Below are positions 1 through 8,443 of a DNA stretch of 8,443 nucleotides, in pieces. Positions within the stretch are counted from its first letter, which is position 1. Each line of letters starts with the position of its first letter. A model generated the notes under the pieces. That model had not been told where the DNA came from. It saw only the letters and a list, made by a program, of their open reading frames with translations, and ran no database searches. Origin of the DNA: Naegleria gruberi (Eukaryota); NCBI GenBank assembly GCA_000004985.1, contig GG739070.1, one strand, 5' to 3'. The translations under genes were made by a program, and so were the position numbers.

Positions 1-332
1 ATACTCTCATTAACCAGAATGTCAGGTGTAATTGGCTTAAGGTATTTTTGAGGAATTTGATTTTGAATAGTAAATTTACAATAATACAATACTGGATACA
101 CCTTCAAACAGTTGTGTACTAGGTATGAGTAGAAGTAAAGAAGATGTTTTTCCATAACTACGACATACACTTCATCAAGTGAACATTTCAAGCAAAGATC
201 CAATAACAGAGCCTGCACTGAGGTTGGAATGGCAACATATTTGCCTAAGTGCACGTCTATTTCATGATGAATATTAGGAAGAACACCACAAAACAAATAC
301 TTCCGAAGGTCTGCCAAGTTGACATTTGTCAT
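1..332 (-). CDS. Hypothetical protein, N-terminal part only. The ATG is at 332..330 and the reading frame runs open off the left edge of the window (5' partial in window coordinates, gene continues leftward).
   Basis: I translated the reverse complement of 1..332 by hand. It gives an uninterrupted frame of 110 codons: MTNVNLADLRKYLFCGVLPNIHHEIDVHLGKYVAIPTSVQALLLDLCLKCSLDEVYVVVMEKHLLYFYSYLVHNCLKVYPVLYYCKFTIQNQIPQKYLKPITPDILVNES... An in-frame TAG lies 5 codons upstream of the ATG, so this is the first Met. The context AAAAAAGAA-ATG is A-rich. Codon usage (TTG, AAG, GGT) matches the two other genes. 110 stop-free codons is unlikely by chance in ~30% GC DNA. The ORF track omits it only because it runs off the window. 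No family recognised. Confidence 0.45.
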   Translation of the reverse strand, partial: MTNVNLADLRKYLFCGVLPNIHHEIDVHLGKYVAIPTSVQALLLDLCLKCSLDEVYVVVMEKHLLYFYSYLVHNCLKVYPVLYYCKFTIQNQIPQKYLKPITPDILVNES

Positions 333-1039
333 TTCTTTTTTGTTCTAGTTTTGAAAAGAAATCTTGTAACCATTGGAACTGAAATTATTTTATTAAAAAC
401 TACAAAATAAAATTATTAAAAATAATAACACAAATAAATAAAATCTTTGAAATGTATTATCTTTTTAATCTTATCAGATATTGAGCTAATAATCAGGATA
501 TACTTCGGAATAAAGTACTTGATGGATTTAATTCATAAACATCTTCATGTAAACTTCCAAAATGAAAATTTATATATTTCGAATTGTCAAAGGATGATGA
601 TGCTAACTAACCAACAATTTGCGTAGTAATATTGATCATATATTCAGATAATATATTGGTGTCGATAGTCCATCGCACATTGATTTTCATTTTTATCATT
701 AATTACAAATACGATTTGGTGACAACATATATAGGAGTTGGCAACATCAGAATTTTCCATCTCGATAAAATTTATTCCGTCCAACAATTTACATGACAAA
801 TTTAAAAAAGTAAATTAATAAGAGTGTTTAGAACAATGTCATCTCATGATTTGAAATTAGTCCTTTTTGTTTGTCCACTAGTTTCAAAGTGAAATGAAAC
901 AATTCCCTTTTCTAACAATCAAAAATTGGTGATAAAGGATTCAAATTATTAACAACACTTTTAGTTTTTTAATCTCTCTCAATATCTAATGATCATGTAT
1001 TCTACATTGAACTTAATTATTATTCAACTGCTTCATAGA

Positions 1040-1135
1040 TTGTTGAGAAACTTCCTAATCTTCAATGTACCTCTTTGGGCTCTTCCTCTGGACAATCTCT
1101 TTGAACAATTCATCCTCCATAAGGATGCATTTTCT
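1040..1135 (+). promoter_or_regulatory. Pyrimidine (CT)-rich tract on the GST-gene strand, ~230-330 bp upstream of its ATG. This is the kind of CT-box that positions transcription start sites in many fungal promoters.
   Basis: The sequence cttcctaatcttcaatgtacctctttgggctcttcctctggacaatctctttgaacaattcatcctccat is strongly C+T biased in an otherwise A-rich region. The functional interpretation is inference. Confidence 0.25.
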
Positions 1136-1270
1136 TTCACTTTACAACAAAACTTACAATGTTGCAAATTTCAGAGGACATTTTGCGTGCGTTCAATTTT
1201 TCCTTTAAAATGTCCTCATCACGGAATTTGTTTATTTTTCAAAATCAAAAAAAAATTCAAAAATTAAGCC

Positions 1271-1296
1271 ATCAAGAAATTTGATCAAGAAATTTG
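1271..1296 (+). repeat. Perfect tandem duplication of the 13-mer ATCAAGAAATTTG (2 copies), 72 bp upstream of the GST ATG.
   Basis: Read directly: atcaagaaatttg (1271-1283) and atcaagaaatttg (1284-1296). Confidence 0.6.
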
Positions 1297-1367
1297 CAAT
1301 CGGAAGCAATAAAACTCAAAGCTCTCTGCTACAAAATCAACAACACCAACAACAATATAGAAACAAA

Positions 1368-1674
1368 ATGATCGATCTCTACTCACTTGCTACTCCAAAT
1401 GGTCATAAGATTGCCATTGCTTTGGAAGAAATGGGACTCGAATATAAGGCACACACCATTGATATTAGAAAAGGAGAACAATTTTCTCCAGAATTCTTAA
1501 AGATTTCTCCAAATAATAAGATCCCTGCTATTGTTGATCAGGAAAATGGATTGGCATTGTTTGAATCGGGAGCAATTTTGCAATATTTGGCAGATAAAAG
1601 TGGAAAGTTTATTCCTCCAAAAGGATCAAAGGAATATTATCAATGTTTGCAATGGTTGGCTTGGCAAATTGCTG
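1368..1674 (+). CDS. Glutathione S-transferase, Nu-class / Ure2p-like (E. coli YfcG/YghU-like 'disulfide-bond reductase' type), exon 1. Covers the N-terminal thioredoxin-like domain (aa 1-102 plus the first base of codon 103).
   Basis: The first ATG of the frame is at 1368, in context aaacaaaATG. The 'M' the ORF track places at 1281 is a TTG. Translation: MIDLYSLATPNGHKIAIALEEMGLEYKAHTIDIRKGEQFSPEFLKISPNNKIPAIVDQENGLALFESGAILQYLADKSGKFIPPKGSKEYYQCLQWLAWQIA. From memory this is near-collinear with E. coli YfcG (MIDLYFAPTPNGHKI...GQFRPEFLRISPNNKIPAIVD...LFESGAILLYLAEK...LQWLFWQ) and with yeast Ure2p and fungal Ure2p-class GSTs. The exon ends at a canonical donor G|GTATGT. Confidence 0.85.
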
Positions 1675-1802
1675 GTATGTTTTGAATCACTTGATCAATT
1701 TGGATTAATATTTAATATTTTACAATAATTTTCAATAATTTTACAATATTCAATACATTTAATCCTACTCACTGATATGAATGATCAATGGATGAATAAT
1801 AG
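1675..1802 (+). other. Spliceosomal intron (phase 1, 128 nt) of the GST gene: GTATGT...CTGAT(branch-like)...AATAG.
   Basis: The unspliced reading hits TGA at 1683. Joining 1674 to 1803 gives ...WQIAG-LGPMSGQMGFF, which matches the YfcG/Ure2p motif WQ(V/A)GGLGPMxGQ exactly across the junction. The intron is ~20% GC. Its donor GTATGT is the yeast-type consensus. Confidence 0.8.
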
Positions 1803-2110
1803 GATTGGGACCAATGTCTGGACAAATGGGATTCTTCCACAAATACTGCCCAACTGATGTTCCAGTCGGAAAGGAAAGATACTTGAAAGAAACTCAAAGA
1901 TTGTGGGGAGTTTTGGAAAAGCATTTGGCTGAAGGAGACAAGAAGTATATTATCGGAGATGAATACACCATTGCTGATATGGCTATTTTCCCATGGTTGA
2001 GAGTGTTGCCATTCTATGGTGAACCAGTTGTTGAACAATTCANATGGGAAACCTATCCACACATTAAGGCCTACATTGATAGAGTTGGTGAAAGACCTGC
2101 AGTTCAAAAA
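1803..2110 (+). CDS. GST exon 2 (C-terminal alpha-helical GST domain). 3' partial: the CDS runs into the N gap and perhaps 10-20 codons are missing.
   Basis: Translation (GL)GPMSGQMGFFHKYCPTDVPVGKERYLKETQRLWGVLEKHLAEGDKKYIIGDEYTIADMAIFPWLRVLPFYGEPVVEQFxWETYPHIKAYIDRVGERPAVQK. It matches YfcG/Ure2p blocks (ERYxxETQRLY.VL...SIADIA.WPW..., ...RPA) from memory. The single n at 2043 gives one X. The total so far is 205 aa, against ~215 for YfcG. Confidence 0.85.
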
Positions 2111-5100
2111 NNNNNNNNNNNNNNNNNNNNNNNNNNNNNNNNNNNNNNNNNNNNNNNNNNNNNNNNNNNNNNNNNNNNNNNNNNNNNNNNNNNNNNNNNN
2201 NNNNNNNNNNNNNNNNNNNNNNNNNNNNNNNNNNNNNNNNNNNNNNNNNNNNNNNNNNNNNNNNNNNNNNNNNNNNNNNNNNNNNNNNNNNNNNNNNNNN
2301 NNNNNNNNNNNNNNNNNNNNNNNNNNNNNNNNNNNNNNNNNNNNNNNNNNNNNNNNNNNNNNNNNNNNNNNNNNNNNNNNNNNNNNNNNNNNNNNNNNNN
2401 NNNNNNNNNNNNNNNNNNNNNNNNNNNNNNNNNNNNNNNNNNNNNNNNNNNNNNNNNNNNNNNNNNNNNNNNNNNNNNNNNNNNNNNNNNNNNNNNNNNN
2501 NNNNNNNNNNNNNNNNNNNNNNNNNNNNNNNNNNNNNNNNNNNNNNNNNNNNNNNNNNNNNNNNNNNNNNNNNNNNNNNNNNNNNNNNNNNNNNNNNNNN
2601 NNNNNNNNNNNNNNNNNNNNNNNNNNNNNNNNNNNNNNNNNNNNNNNNNNNNNNNNNNNNNNNNNNNNNNNNNNNNNNNNNNNNNNNNNNNNNNNNNNNN
2701 NNNNNNNNNNNNNNNNNNNNNNNNNNNNNNNNNNNNNNNNNNNNNNNNNNNNNNNNNNNNNNNNNNNNNNNNNNNNNNNNNNNNNNNNNNNNNNNNNNNN
2801 NNNNNNNNNNNNNNNNNNNNNNNNNNNNNNNNNNNNNNNNNNNNNNNNNNNNNNNNNNNNNNNNNNNNNNNNNNNNNNNNNNNNNNNNNNNNNNNNNNNN
2901 NNNNNNNNNNNNNNNNNNNNNNNNNNNNNNNNNNNNNNNNNNNNNNNNNNNNNNNNNNNNNNNNNNNNNNNNNNNNNNNNNNNNNNNNNNNNNNNNNNNN
3001 NNNNNNNNNNNNNNNNNNNNNNNNNNNNNNNNNNNNNNNNNNNNNNNNNNNNNNNNNNNNNNNNNNNNNNNNNNNNNNNNNNNNNNNNNNNNNNNNNNNN
3101 NNNNNNNNNNNNNNNNNNNNNNNNNNNNNNNNNNNNNNNNNNNNNNNNNNNNNNNNNNNNNNNNNNNNNNNNNNNNNNNNNNNNNNNNNNNNNNNNNNNN
3201 NNNNNNNNNNNNNNNNNNNNNNNNNNNNNNNNNNNNNNNNNNNNNNNNNNNNNNNNNNNNNNNNNNNNNNNNNNNNNNNNNNNNNNNNNNNNNNNNNNNN
3301 NNNNNNNNNNNNNNNNNNNNNNNNNNNNNNNNNNNNNNNNNNNNNNNNNNNNNNNNNNNNNNNNNNNNNNNNNNNNNNNNNNNNNNNNNNNNNNNNNNNN
3401 NNNNNNNNNNNNNNNNNNNNNNNNNNNNNNNNNNNNNNNNNNNNNNNNNNNNNNNNNNNNNNNNNNNNNNNNNNNNNNNNNNNNNNNNNNNNNNNNNNNN
3501 NNNNNNNNNNNNNNNNNNNNNNNNNNNNNNNNNNNNNNNNNNNNNNNNNNNNNNNNNNNNNNNNNNNNNNNNNNNNNNNNNNNNNNNNNNNNNNNNNNNN
3601 NNNNNNNNNNNNNNNNNNNNNNNNNNNNNNNNNNNNNNNNNNNNNNNNNNNNNNNNNNNNNNNNNNNNNNNNNNNNNNNNNNNNNNNNNNNNNNNNNNNN
3701 NNNNNNNNNNNNNNNNNNNNNNNNNNNNNNNNNNNNNNNNNNNNNNNNNNNNNNNNNNNNNNNNNNNNNNNNNNNNNNNNNNNNNNNNNNNNNNNNNNNN
3801 NNNNNNNNNNNNNNNNNNNNNNNNNNNNNNNNNNNNNNNNNNNNNNNNNNNNNNNNNNNNNNNNNNNNNNNNNNNNNNNNNNNNNNNNNNNNNNNNNNNN
3901 NNNNNNNNNNNNNNNNNNNNNNNNNNNNNNNNNNNNNNNNNNNNNNNNNNNNNNNNNNNNNNNNNNNNNNNNNNNNNNNNNNNNNNNNNNNNNNNNNNNN
4001 NNNNNNNNNNNNNNNNNNNNNNNNNNNNNNNNNNNNNNNNNNNNNNNNNNNNNNNNNNNNNNNNNNNNNNNNNNNNNNNNNNNNNNNNNNNNNNNNNNNN
4101 NNNNNNNNNNNNNNNNNNNNNNNNNNNNNNNNNNNNNNNNNNNNNNNNNNNNNNNNNNNNNNNNNNNNNNNNNNNNNNNNNNNNNNNNNNNNNNNNNNNN
4201 NNNNNNNNNNNNNNNNNNNNNNNNNNNNNNNNNNNNNNNNNNNNNNNNNNNNNNNNNNNNNNNNNNNNNNNNNNNNNNNNNNNNNNNNNNNNNNNNNNNN
4301 NNNNNNNNNNNNNNNNNNNNNNNNNNNNNNNNNNNNNNNNNNNNNNNNNNNNNNNNNNNNNNNNNNNNNNNNNNNNNNNNNNNNNNNNNNNNNNNNNNNN
4401 NNNNNNNNNNNNNNNNNNNNNNNNNNNNNNNNNNNNNNNNNNNNNNNNNNNNNNNNNNNNNNNNNNNNNNNNNNNNNNNNNNNNNNNNNNNNNNNNNNNN
4501 NNNNNNNNNNNNNNNNNNNNNNNNNNNNNNNNNNNNNNNNNNNNNNNNNNNNNNNNNNNNNNNNNNNNNNNNNNNNNNNNNNNNNNNNNNNNNNNNNNNN
4601 NNNNNNNNNNNNNNNNNNNNNNNNNNNNNNNNNNNNNNNNNNNNNNNNNNNNNNNNNNNNNNNNNNNNNNNNNNNNNNNNNNNNNNNNNNNNNNNNNNNN
4701 NNNNNNNNNNNNNNNNNNNNNNNNNNNNNNNNNNNNNNNNNNNNNNNNNNNNNNNNNNNNNNNNNNNNNNNNNNNNNNNNNNNNNNNNNNNNNNNNNNNN
4801 NNNNNNNNNNNNNNNNNNNNNNNNNNNNNNNNNNNNNNNNNNNNNNNNNNNNNNNNNNNNNNNNNNNNNNNNNNNNNNNNNNNNNNNNNNNNNNNNNNNN
4901 NNNNNNNNNNNNNNNNNNNNNNNNNNNNNNNNNNNNNNNNNNNNNNNNNNNNNNNNNNNNNNNNNNNNNNNNNNNNNNNNNNNNNNNNNNNNNNNNNNNN
5001 NNNNNNNNNNNNNNNNNNNNNNNNNNNNNNNNNNNNNNNNNNNNNNNNNNNNNNNNNNNNNNNNNNNNNNNNNNNNNNNNNNNNNNNNNNNNNNNNNNNN

Positions 5101-6990
5101 NNNNNNNNNNNNNNNNNNNNNNNNNNNNNNNNNNNNNNNNNNNNNNNNNNNNNNNNNNNNNNNNNNNNNNNNNNNNNNNNNNNNNNNNNNNNNNNNNNNN
5201 NNNNNNNNNNNNNNNNNNNNNNNNNNNNNNNNNNNNNNNNNNNNNNNNNNNNNNNNNNNNNNNNNNNNNNNNNNNNNNNNNNNNNNNNNNNNNNNNNNNN
5301 NNNNNNNNNNNNNNNNNNNNNNNNNNNNNNNNNNNNNNNNNNNNNNNNNNNNNNNNNNNNNNNNNNNNNNNNNNNNNNNNNNNNNNNNNNNNNNNNNNNN
5401 NNNNNNNNNNNNNNNNNNNNNNNNNNNNNNNNNNNNNNNNNNNNNNNNNNNNNNNNNNNNNNNNNNNNNNNNNNNNNNNNNNNNNNNNNNNNNNNNNNNN
5501 NNNNNNNNNNNNNNNNNNNNNNNNNNNNNNNNNNNNNNNNNNNNNNNNNNNNNNNNNNNNNNNNNNNNNNNNNNNNNNNNNNNNNNNNNNNNNNNNNNNN
5601 NNNNNNNNNNNNNNNNNNNNNNNNNNNNNNNNNNNNNNNNNNNNNNNNNNNNNNNNNNNNNNNNNNNNNNNNNNNNNNNNNNNNNNNNNNNNNNNNNNNN
5701 NNNNNNNNNNNNNNNNNNNNNNNNNNNNNNNNNNNNNNNNNNNNNNNNNNNNNNNNNNNNNNNNNNNNNNNNNNNNNNNNNNNNNNNNNNNNNNNNNNNN
5801 NNNNNNNNNNNNNNNNNNNNNNNNNNNNNNNNNNNNNNNNNNNNNNNNNNNNNNNNNNNNNNNNNNNNNNNNNNNNNNNNNNNNNNNNNNNNNNNNNNNN
5901 NNNNNNNNNNNNNNNNNNNNNNNNNNNNNNNNNNNNNNNNNNNNNNNNNNNNNNNNNNNNNNNNNNNNNNNNNNNNNNNNNNNNNNNNNNNNNNNNNNNN
6001 NNNNNNNNNNNNNNNNNNNNNNNNNNNNNNNNNNNNNNNNNNNNNNNNNNNNNNNNNNNNNNNNNNNNNNNNNNNNNNNNNNNNNNNNNNNNNNNNNNNN
6101 NNNNNNNNNNNNNNNNNNNNNNNNNNNNNNNNNNNNNNNNNNNNNNNNNNNNNNNNNNNNNNNNNNNNNNNNNNNNNNNNNNNNNNNNNNNNNNNNNNNN
6201 NNNNNNNNNNNNNNNNNNNNNNNNNNNNNNNNNNNNNNNNNNNNNNNNNNNNNNNNNNNNNNNNNNNNNNNNNNNNNNNNNNNNNNNNNNNNNNNNNNNN
6301 NNNNNNNNNNNNNNNNNNNNNNNNNNNNNNNNNNNNNNNNNNNNNNNNNNNNNNNNNNNNNNNNNNNNNNNNNNNNNNNNNNNNNNNNNNNNNNNNNNNN
6401 NNNNNNNNNNNNNNNNNNNNNNNNNNNNNNNNNNNNNNNNNNNNNNNNNNNNNNNNNNNNNNNNNNNNNNNNNNNNNNNNNNNNNNNNNNNNNNNNNNNN
6501 NNNNNNNNNNNNNNNNNNNNNNNNNNNNNNNNNNNNNNNNNNNNNNNNNNNNNNNNNNNNNNNNNNNNNNNNNNNNNNNNNNNNNNNNNNNNNNNNNNNN
6601 NNNNNNNNNNNNNNNNNNNNNNNNNNNNNNNNNNNNNNNNNNNNNNNNNNNNNNNNNNNNNNNNNNNNNNNNNNNNNNNNNNNNNNNNNNNNNNNNNNNN
6701 NNNNNNNNNNNNNNNNNNNNNNNNNNNNNNNNNNNNNNNNNNNNNNNNNNNNNNNNNNNNNNNNNNNNNNNNNNNNNNNNNNNNNNNNNNNNNNNNNNNN
6801 NNNNNNNNNNNNNNNNNNNNNNNNNNNNNNNNNNNNNNNNNNNNNNNNNNNNNNNNNNNNNNNNNNNNNNNNNNNNNNNNNNNNNNNNNNNNNNNNNNNN
6901 NNNNNNNNNNNNNNNNNNNNNNNNNNNNNNNNNNNNNNNNNNNNNNNNNNNNNNNNNNNNNNNNNNNNNNNNNNNNNNNNNNNNNNNNNN
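2111..6990. other. Assembly/scaffold gap or hard-masked block: 4880 consecutive N, plus an isolated n at 2043.
   Basis: Read directly. The 3' ends of both convergent flanking genes (GST on plus, BTB gene on minus) fall inside it. Confidence 0.99.
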
Positions 6991-7053
6991 CAGCGTATCA
7001 GAAGTAATTTCATTCCATTTTCCAATAACTTTCCATCTCGTATGTAATTTAAT
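6991..7053 (-). CDS. BTB/KCTD-like gene, exon 2 (continues the BTB fold). 3' partial: runs into the N gap.
   Basis: After splicing, base 7053 completes codon AT|A. The frame then reads I-LNYIRDGKLLENGMKLLLIR. Together with the exon 1 end (..FIDRDPKYFRY) this gives FRYILNYIRDGKL, the hallmark T1/BTB_2 motif FRYILNYLRDGKL. The ORF-track entry 2064..7025 (MENGMKLLLIR...) is this same frame. Its 'M' is a TTG. Confidence 0.7.
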
Positions 7054-7136
7054 CTGTGTTAAATTATTATTATATTCATTATTTGAAGGTAAAATAAATA
7101 TTAATTATTATTGATTTTCCTTAATCAAAAACCTAC
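7054..7136 (-). other. Spliceosomal intron (83 nt, phase 2) of the BTB/KCTD-like gene. Minus-strand sequence GTAGGT...TTTAAC(branch-like)ACAG.
   Basis: Exon 1 ends ...TTT AGA TAC AT|GTAGGT. Reading through unspliced gives ATG TAG (FRYM*) and truncates the BTB domain ~50 residues early. The acceptor is ...aatttaacacag| at 7054. It is 84% A+T. Confidence 0.7.
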
Positions 7137-7948
7137 ATGTATCTAAAATATTTTGGATCTCTATCTATAAATACATGACCATTGTCATCTCTCAGCACTG
7201 TATCCTTCTCCGAAAATACTAATGAAAAAAGTGATTCACATCCTCGTAGTGTCTTGCTCGTTGTTTGAAATATTTGACCTCCAACATTAAGCGTCACTAC
7301 CCTATTACTTGAGGTCCTCTTTGGTTTTGTTACTTCGGGTATTGATGAAACAGTCCTCCTCAAACTTGGTTTTTCTTCTCCTGTTATAACTCCTCTAGAA
7401 GATGATGATTGTGGTTCATTTGCAAAATTCACAGTTGCCATTTTTTCAATTTCATTTAAATTATTAATTGTCCTAGATGATGATGGTTCTCTATTTGGTT
7501 GTTGTTTTTCTCTAGTTTGTTCCCTAGTTGTTGTTGAAGTTACAATATTATTTTTGGTATTATTATTATTTTGATTTGTATTAATAGTGGAAGGACTCAT
7601 TGTCTTCATTATTGATTTGAGTATTCCTTTAGATTTGGGCGATAATTCATCTAATTTTTTAACTGCTTCCTCGTAGGTTAATTGGTGATCTTCCGATGGT
7701 GATGGTGTTACTGGTTTTGCCGATGAAGATTTCCGATGATTGCCAGATGATCTTTGATTTGAAGATGATGATAATTGCTGCTCTACAAAAGGAGAAGATC
7801 GTTTTGGAACGCTGCTACTCCGATGTGGAGAGGAATGAGGTTTACTTGCTGTTGCCATCTCATCAATAGATGCCGTATAGTTACTCCTTGAAGAGGATTT
7901 TCCTATTTGTTCTGGACATCCTCTGTCGTTCCTAGTTGATGTGCTCAT
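7137..7948 (-). CDS. BTB/POZ (K+-channel-tetramerisation T1 / KCTD-type, possibly Whi2-like) domain protein, exon 1. It covers ~200 aa of Ser/Asn/Thr-rich disordered N-terminus and then the first half of the BTB domain.
   Basis: The real ATG is at 7948..7946 (MSTSTRNDRG...). The track's first 'M' at 7951 is a TTG. An in-frame TAA lies 8 codons upstream. The C-terminal part is RVVTLNVGGQIFQTTSKTLRGCESLFSLVFSEKDTVLRDDNGHVFIDRDPKYFRY. Compare the KCTD1 T1 domain: VHIDVGGHMYTSSLATL...HYFIDRDGQMFRYILNFLR. The N-terminus carries low-complexity runs (SSSSNQRSSG, NTNQNNNNTKNN, QSSSSRG). Confidence 0.8.
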
Positions 7949-7976
7949 CAATTTTTTTTTTGATTTTATTGTTTAA

Positions 7977-8000
7977 GATTTTGGCGGGTGATTTTGGCGG
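7977..8000. promoter_or_regulatory. Duplicated GC-rich 11-mer GATTTTGGCGG (x2, period 13), ~30-55 bp upstream of the BTB-gene ATG. It reads CCGCCAAAATC on the gene strand. Candidate transcription-factor site (E2F-like TTTGGCGG core).
   Basis: Read directly: gattttggcgg (7977-7987), gt, gattttggcgg (7990-8000). It is the only GC-rich island in an ~85% A+T intergenic stretch. Its function is inferred. Confidence 0.3.
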
Positions 8001-8074
8001 TTGATTACATACTCCAAAGATGATTTACTTGTCAATCAGCAAAACACATTTATGAAGTGGAACATGAACTGAGC

Positions 8075-8090
8075 TACCTTAGTACCTTAG
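8075..8090 (+). repeat. Tandem duplication of the 8-mer TACCTTAG (x2), ~50 bp upstream of the tRNA.
   Basis: Read directly: taccttag taccttag. Confidence 0.5.
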
Positions 8091-8136
8091 ATCATGGATG
8101 TGGTTATGAACAATATTTTTAAGAAGTTAATAAGAA

Positions 8137-8208
8137 TCCCGTGTGGTCCAATGGCTAAGATACCTGGCTCTCACCCAGGAGATCCGGGTTCAATTCCCGG
8201 CACGGGAG
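8137..8208 (+). tRNA. tE(CUC): tRNA-Glu, anticodon CUC, 72 nt, no intron. The 3' CCA is not encoded.
   Basis: I folded it manually. The acceptor stem TCCCGTG/CACGGGA has 7 bp and the discriminator is G. The D-arm GTCC-AATGGCTA-AGAT follows the same G-U/T-A/C-G pattern as canonical eukaryotic tRNA-Glu, and the A box is TGGTCCAATGG. The anticodon stem CCTGG/CCAGG has 5 bp, with loop C-T-CTC-A-C (U33, anticodon CTC, A37). The variable loop is 5 nt. The T-arm is CCGGG-TTCAATT-CCCGG with B box GGTTCAATTCC. Confidence 0.9.
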
Positions 8209-8214
8209 GATTCA

Positions 8215-8228
8215 TTTTAGTTTTATTT
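8215..8228 (+). terminator. RNA polymerase III terminator T-runs, 7 nt after the tRNA 3' end (TTTTAGTTTTATTT).
   Basis: Two T4 runs sit at 8215-8218 and 8221-8224, immediately downstream of the discriminator base. Pol III terminates in oligo-T on the coding strand. Confidence 0.5.
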
Positions 8229-8233
8229 CACTT

Positions 8234-8434
8234 TTACAAGAATGATAAAATCTCCTCTGGATCAATACCAAAGTTTGCCACTGTAGAAAAGAGATCATTC
8301 TCATTGGGAATCACCTTTTCGCTCTCTTCTTTTGCATGGCTCAATCGATTGTGCAAATAACTCACTTGTGGTCTATCATTGAACAGCATGACTTGTCCAC
8401 ATAAACTCAAAGCAGAGGCATAACTCTTTTCCAT
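8234..8434 (-). CDS. Small hypothetical protein (66 aa as drawn), or the C-terminal part of a larger gene whose 5' end lies beyond the right window edge.
   Basis: The ATG is at 8434..8432 in context aaaatcATG and the stop TAA at 8236..8234. It translates MEKSYASALSLCGQVMLFNDRPQVSYLHNRLSHAKEESEKVIPNENDLFSTVANFGIDPEEILSFL, which is hydrophilic and protein-like. The frame stays open upstream to the window end (..AKI-M), so the true start may be outside. No family recognised. See the finding on a possible internal intron. Confidence 0.4.
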   Translation of the reverse strand: MEKSYASALSLCGQVMLFNDRPQVSYLHNRLSHAKEESEKVIPNENDLFSTVANFGIDPEEILSFL

Positions 8435-8443
8435 GATTTTTGC

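Follow-up and report, generated by a model that had tools for sequence, protein, structure and literature searches.

The model of a gene that ends abruptly within a conserved domain raises the question whether the protein really stops there, or whether an intron has been overlooked and the remainder of the coding sequence lost from view. We address this question for a KCTD-type BTB gene of Naegleria gruberi. The window (i.e. the whole stretch of DNA that was analysed) is an entire, small and unplaced scaffold of 8443 bp from the draft genome of strain NEG-M; a run of 4880 N separates its two sequenced parts, 1..2110 and 6991..8443, and its GC content of about 30% fits the published value of 33% for the genome (PMC8296547). 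On the minus strand it carries an open reading frame (ORF) of 271 amino acids (aa) (7948..7133; P0001) that ends in FRYM* and is 100% identical to one database protein, deposited as 'predicted protein [Naegleria gruberi]' (XP_002668424.1, EFC35680.1, NAEGRDRAFT_54798, UniProt D2W5H3). A literature search by accession returned no mention of the locus. Comparison of the sequence with domain profiles and with relatives indicates that the gene model very probably misses a GT-AG intron of 83 nt (7136/7054), and the deposited terminal 'M' of XP_002668424.1 is an artefact of reading into that intron.

The junction itself can be read directly from the minus strand (Table 1). Exon 1 ends in ...CCA AAA TAT TTT AGA TAC AT, with its last base at 7137, and is followed at once by the donor GTAGGT (7136-7131), while the acceptor CAG (7056-7054) closes the stretch ...AACACAG. 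From 7053 down to 6991 the sequence then starts with A TTA AAT TAC ATA CGA GAT GGA AAG and remains free of stops up to the run of N. Joining AT to A yields the translation ...FIDRDPKYFRY-I-LNYIRDGKLLENGMKLLLIR, so that the spliced product reads ...FIDRDPKYFRYILNYIRDGKLLENGMKLLLIR. The block between donor and acceptor has a GC content of 17%, versus 36% in exon 1, and contains stops in all three frames. The original prediction, made from the DNA letters, had named the donor at 7136, the acceptor at 7054, their spacing of 83 nt and an ATG TAG lying on GTAGGT, all of which are found exactly in the sequence; it had also called the acceptor pyrimidine/A-rich, and here the site is indeed present at 7054, but towards its 3' end the intron is A/T-rich and not pyrimidine-rich. 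That the gene has two or more exons and runs on into the N gap, as was also claimed, agrees with the support obtained for the intron and with the frame of 7053..6991, which is open to the gap.

Table 1. Features of the window and of the homologous Naegleria loci (L001 to L003 denote contigs outside the window).
Feature	Coordinates	Strand	Remarks
Exon 1 of BTB gene	7137..7948	-	ATG at 7948 to AT of split Ile codon; residues 1-270 plus 2 nt
Predicted unannotated spliceosomal intron	7054..7136	-	83 nt, phase 2, GTAGGT...TTTAACACAG
Predicted false stop TAG	7133..7135	-	bases 2-4 of intron donor GTAGGT, in exon-1 frame (ATG TAG)
Visible exon 2	6991..7053	-	third Ile base plus LNYIRDGKLLENGMKLLLIR; 63 nt open to gap edge; ends in partial codon TG
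BTB_2 (T1/KCTD-type) coding region, visible part	6991..7297	-	residues 218-283+, split by intron; PF02214 57.5 bits, E 1.8e-15
Conserved motif LSPKSKGILKSIMKT	7601..7645	-	residues 102-116, within low-complexity N-terminal region
Assembly gap	2111..6990	.	4880 N; covers 3' part of BTB gene (-) and 3' end of convergent GST gene (+)
Environmental Naegleria gene	L001:420..1446, L002:1351..2002		exon 2 uninterrupted to stop
N. lovaniensis C9374_014188	L003:6001..7629		4 exons
Glutathione S-transferase (GST) gene	1368..2110	+	ATG 1368; convergent with BTB gene; runs into gap, 3'-truncated
GST intron	1675..1802	+	128 nt, phase 1, GTATGT..AATAG, 21% GC
tRNA-Glu (anticodon CTC)	8137..8208	+	Rfam tRNA 61 bits; 188 nt upstream of BTB ATG, facing away
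3' end of another gene	8234..8443	-	open from window edge to stop 8236-8234; 69 aa, ...NFGIDPEEILSFL*; stop 25 nt from tRNA

The first line of evidence is the effect of the splice on the BTB domain. Against Pfam BTB_2 (PF02214) the unspliced product scores 37 bits and covers profile positions 1-55 of 94, which means that without the downstream exon the domain is cut midway; the spliced product scores 57.5 bits over positions 1-69 of 94, and both products exceed the gathering threshold of the family (21.4 bits). The original prediction had held that the end of the ORF cuts the domain in its middle and had proposed this profile comparison, with a BTB domain complete in the absence of exon 2 as the outcome that would speak against an intron; what the profile returns is the half domain. 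For a finer comparison a custom hidden Markov model (HMM) was trained on 17 homologous BTB domains, with the window protein excluded, and used to score all 182 GT..AG pairs whose donor falls within the final 350 nt of the region. The pair 7136/7054 ranks first of the 182 with 88.7 bits, i.e. 18.7 bits above the runner-up, which combines the same donor with the acceptor 7037 (70.0 bits), and the unspliced product scores 67.6 bits with the same model. The FRY-I- splice that had been proposed to restore the family signature is thereby the best of the pairs scored.

That runner-up deserves a word, as another splice (such as 7136/7037, with an intron of 100 nt), or alternatively an error of sequencing or assembly close to the gap, might be invoked in place of the 83-nt intron. 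The frame obtained with acceptor 7037 is likewise open to the gap, and sequence next to a gap may be poor (close to the opposite edge, position 2043 is a single N). Nevertheless, we give this explanation next to no credence: acceptor 7037 loses the ILNYIRDGKL motif along with its 18.7 bits, an AT-rich and stop-filled block of 83 nt within GT..AG is not what errors in base calling bring about, and relatives carry an intron at this place (see below).

The match of exon 2 to the BTB family exceeds chance. Stop-free windows of 63 nt taken from the scaffold outside the gene and appended to exon 1 scored 69.7 +/- 1.8 bits (maximum 79.3; n=1869), none of the 1869 reached 88.7 bits, and the real exon 2 stands at z=10.6 relative to them. 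The only windows that do reach 88.7 bits come from the N-terminus of the gene's own BTB domain, so that the model counts the domain twice. Shuffling the exon-2 peptide gave the same picture (0 of 2000 shuffles reached 88.7 bits), and the earlier statement that a frame would hardly land on the signature by accident is borne out by both controls. In addition, a search of PDB sequences aligned the BTB structures of KCTD13, SHKBP1 and KCTD9 across the junction without a gap, and in the case of KCTD9 the alignment extends to the last visible residues (..gqlivndginll versus ..gkllen-gmkll).

The second and strongest line of evidence comes from the same site in other Naegleria. Relatives were collected with HMMER in an exhaustive search that took the deposited protein as query and yielded for the most part animal proteins with several BTB domains; a further search used the joined environmental protein described below. 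When the BTB domain alone served as query in a word-indexed search for homologues, a single, uninformative candidate resulted. The top representative matches (P0022-P0033) were rejected as orthologues, being animal proteins with multiple BTB repeats. One relative, from among the matches with longer alignments, is a metagenomic ORF of 130 aa (P0134) that ends in ...FLDRDPTYFRFM, at the same residue as the N. gruberi model; a member of its 90%-identity cluster (P0172) ends in ...DRDPKHFRFM. The ORF was found on two contigs, L001 (JGI 3300002220) and L002 (ENA ERZ27315067), both of which read TTC AT/GTAAGTAGTTTTCTGACTTTGAAACTAACCCAACCAG/C CTC AAC TAT TTG AGA GAA GGA AAG and thus contain a GTAAGT..CCAG intron of 37 nt (L001:809..845) in the same codon and the same phase 2 as in the window gene. 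The metagenome gene caller had split the L001 gene into P0134 and a second product of 196 aa (P0178), which when joined give a protein of 329 aa. With the intron removed it matches BTB_2 with 53 bits (1-89/94), as opposed to 25.8 bits (1-54/94) before. The joined protein aligns across the junction with the spliced window protein (39% identity over 140 aa, E 3e-20) and is 58% identical to C9374_014188 of N. lovaniensis (P0179, 494 aa), which indicates that both contigs derive from a Naegleria. Independent data sets thus contain the gene cut at one residue, as P0001, P0134 and P0172.

C9374_014188 is the closest named relative of the window gene, and the annotation to which it belongs was made with BRAKER1 guided by RNA-seq (PMC6125883). 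Its first intron (L003:6864..6913; 50 nt, GTAAGT..ACAG, phase 2) splits the Val codon GT/G of ...DPKYFIH-V-LNYLRDG..., in position and phase as AT/A in the window. Intron site and phase are therefore common to N. lovaniensis and the environmental Naegleria, in line with the proposal of a missed intron. The N. lovaniensis protein also shares with the window protein a Ser-rich N-terminus, the motif LSPxSKGxIKxIMK and the BTB_2 domain, and the alignment of the two (33% identity over 205 aa, E 9e-22) starts at the motif (LSPxSKG..IMK). The two genes differ in the length of the intron (50 versus 83 nt) and in its donor (GTAAGT versus GTAGGT) and share no synteny, and C9374_014188 has two further short introns (L003:7260..7303 and L003:7520..7569), which are absent from the environmental gene, as well as some 165 aa at its C-terminus, the counterpart of which in the window gene would lie behind the gap. 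Together with the environmental gene it is the closest relative identified. The environmental gene resembles the window gene in intron site, in phase and in having been cut by the caller at ..FRFM*, but it has only about 80 aa before its BTB domain and is nearer to N. lovaniensis than to N. gruberi. As to length, the window intron is typical of the genus, the median in N. lovaniensis being 80 bp (PMC6125883), and N. gruberi genes have on average 1.7 exons (PMC8296547). The scaffold itself has another AT-rich GT-AG intron, that of the GST gene (128 nt, 21% GC).

With these relatives at hand the two remaining alternatives can be weighed. The first takes TAG 7135-7133 as a true stop, so that the locus would be a pseudogene or would encode 271 aa with half a BTB domain, the BTB-like sequence after 7053 being a relic. 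This agrees with the deposited model, and a small unplaced scaffold with a large gap might represent a repeat or some degenerate copy. Nonetheless, a clean GT..AG pair that restores the frame, together with collinear homology, is unexpected in a relic; an interruption of the same codon is annotated as an intron, or behaves as one, in two other Naegleria lineages; and the resulting BTB domain would end at profile position 55 of 94, without its C-terminal helices. We therefore regard a true stop as very improbable. The second alternative accepts the intron but supposes that it is often retained, the 271-aa product being made on purpose beside the full-length protein by regulated retention. It draws on the fact that a stop follows the split codon directly in all three Naegleria lineages (upon read-through ATG TAA in L001, GTG TAA in L003 and ATG TAG in the window). 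Such a stop, however, arises automatically, since any GTAA or GTAG donor in phase 2 produces xxG TAA or xxG TAG, and its conservation is consequently uninformative. Moreover, neither length (83, 37 and 50 nt) nor content of the intron is conserved, its RNA fold is not unusual (z = -0.17) and an Rfam search with the intron gave no match, which leaves regulated retention with a slight chance at best.

A number of observations weigh against a missed intron. Exon 2 is visible for 21 residues only. The donor GTAGGT is unlike the GTAAGT or GTATGT of the three comparison introns. No spliced or longer form of XP_002668424.1 was found in the protein collections, and an exact-match scan of metagenome contigs with exon 2, by which the gap might have been bridged, gave 0 matches. 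Furthermore, no synteny was found between the window scaffold and the N. lovaniensis locus; strict orthology is for this reason not claimed, and the Naegleria relatives may be paralogues. Finally, the more distant FDP41_001101 of N. fowleri (P0173) has no intron at the site, as is apparent from an uninterrupted ORF of 542 aa (P0113). We considered this protein as an orthologue on the basis of its 41% identity in the BTB domain, but its site is intronless and its C-terminus is unrelated to those of L001 and N. lovaniensis, and it was treated as a paralogue. It is another Naegleria BTB_2 protein (657 aa) with a Ser/Thr-rich N-terminus; the ENA ORF P0113 departs from the NCBI model after ..KKETV, suggestive of an intron further downstream.

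On balance, we infer the following course of events from the missed 83-nt intron. The 5' part of NAEGRDRAFT_54798, a nuclear gene, encodes a Ser/Thr/Asn-rich region of about 215 aa with a short conserved helical motif, followed by a BTB_2 (T1) oligomerisation domain, the coding sequence of which is very probably interrupted by an ordinary phase-2 GT-AG spliceosomal intron (7136..7054). Reading through the donor GTAG in phase 2 gives ATG TAG, i.e. 'M' and a stop, and with the 3' exons and the true stop presumably lying within the 4.9-kb gap, the gene caller may have been left with the single-exon ORF ending in FRYM* as the only 'complete' model. That caller could find introns in general; one is clearly required in the convergent GST gene of this scaffold. 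The BTB intron would be excised in the cell, and the mRNA would run via ...FRY-I-LNYIRDGKL... to the end of the BTB domain and, by analogy with N. lovaniensis C9374_014188, probably on into some 165 aa of C-terminal sequence specific to Naegleria.

The end of the intron, TTTAACACAG (7054..7063, minus strand), contains a TAAC element that resembles a branch site, about 5 nt before the AG. Introns of Trichomonas and Giardia have a fused motif of branch site and 3' splice site, ACTAACACACAG, which the intron end resembles. CTAACCCAACCAG is found in the L001 intron. Neither the intron of N. lovaniensis nor that of the GST gene shows a TAAC-like element, and for that reason the element may be fortuitous.

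With respect to the visible protein, the N-terminal 215 aa or so consist of Ser for 20.6%, Thr for 9.8% and Asn for 8.4%, no Pfam domain was found in them, and a single-sequence AlphaFold2 (AF2) model of the window protein (mean predicted local distance difference test score, pLDDT, 50) gives them pLDDT <50 outside a short helical motif. The earlier description of this region as Ser/Asn-rich and disordered thus fits its composition and the model, and the Ser-rich N-terminus is probably disordered, yet there is a helical motif inside it. This motif, LSPKSKGILKSIMKT, falls in the sole stretch that the model predicts with confidence as helical (helices 92-100 and 104-116, pLDDT 83-86) and aligns to LSPSSKGLIKTIMKS of the N. 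lovaniensis protein, at a similar distance ahead of the BTB domain.

The BTB domain places the protein in the Pfam BTB_2 family, together with the metazoan KCTD BTB/T1 domains and the T1 domains of Kv channels. Among PDB sequences its best matches are KCTD13/BACURD1 (4uij), SHKBP1 (4crh) and KCTD9 (5bxh), next to TNFAIP1 (5fta), KCTD17 (5a6r) and KCTD5 (3drz), with E values from 4e-12 to 4e-10. The block FIDRDxxxFxxILNYLRxGxL that is conserved in metazoan KCTD proteins straddles the splice junction of the window gene. The likeness is limited to the BTB domain, and the N-terminal extension (presumably the C-terminus too) is lineage-specific. BTB domains of KCTD proteins homo-oligomerise, and many recruit Cullin-3, with the C-terminal region choosing the substrates. 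By analogy, the window product would act as KCTD proteins generally do, i.e. by BTB-mediated homo-oligomerisation and, as is often the case in the family, as a Cullin-3 substrate adaptor. The comparison with yeast Whi2 that had been drawn initially holds at the level of the family only: both are BTB proteins outside the Metazoa, and similarity of Whi2 to KCTD proteins in sequence and predicted structure has been reported (PMC6126876), but the same likeness applies equally to any KCTD protein. To BTB_2 the window protein gives a canonical match, its nearest structures are those of KCTD13, SHKBP1 and KCTD9, and a low-complexity N-terminus defines neither Whi2 nor the KCTD group.

Proteins that combine BTB_2 with a TLDc domain (P0003, P0006 from Physarum, and P0014) are among the best matches to the BTB domain, and P0003 even has the exact motif FRYILNYLRDGKL. 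Nevertheless, no TLDc or other Pfam domain was found after the BTB domain in the N. lovaniensis protein or in the spliced L001 protein, so that we do not expect the window gene to have a TLDc architecture. What the gap probably hides, judging from these relatives, is the end of the BTB domain and, after it, some 165 aa of C-terminal region specific to Naegleria. As to the former, at least 25 profile positions (70-94) of BTB_2 fall in the gap, the visible part reaching 1-69/94 and the relatives 1-89/94. As to the latter, N. lovaniensis and the environmental Naegleria agree in this region (L001:846..1446 and L003:6914..7629) with 58-62% identity, and it has the conserved pattern ..LEDCxLRHxNxEVVKxSExGSLYxCLDYV..WYNYE..VLYWNDVxVQRKxFK... 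In the relatives it gave no Pfam match, no match to PDB sequences and no BLASTP similarity to the N. fowleri protein P0173. The post-BTB region is predicted to be beta-rich, but at low confidence, and an AF2 model of P0179 with an alignment of 4 rows has a mean pLDDT of 41; a SPRY-like assignment, guessed by eye, was dropped as no support for it was found. One could speculate that the gene represents a Naegleria-specific KCTD subfamily, composed of the conserved LSPxSKGxIKxIMK helix, BTB_2 and, at the C-terminus, some 165 apparently beta-rich aa, which might serve a Cul3-KCTD ligase as a new module for substrate recognition, the gap hiding the N. gruberi copy; we consider this combination rather unlikely.

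The remainder of the scaffold carries the features that complete Table 1. The spliced product of the GST gene (...WQIAGLGPMSGQMGFF...) matches GST_N with 64 bits and GST_C with 45 bits, and the single N at 2043 lies within the gene. The 69-aa ORF at the far end of the window gave no Pfam match. The stretch 1..1280 has a GC content of 27-29% and no ORF longer than 92 aa, and is probably intergenic or an unrecognised intron-rich gene.

The immediate outcome is the correction of one entry (XP_002668424.1 / D2W5H3), which in its present form is half a BTB domain with a spurious Met. At the same time the locus exemplifies a systematic artefact, in that GTAA or GTAG donors in phase 2, combined with absent downstream exons or with a prokaryote-style ORF caller, lead to genes that are cut at the donor. 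In itself this is a routine correction of a gene model, by which a well-known domain family gains a new member, and it has no bearing on open biological questions; its value lies in the quality of annotation and in the study of KCTD proteins and Cullin-3 in Heterolobosea.

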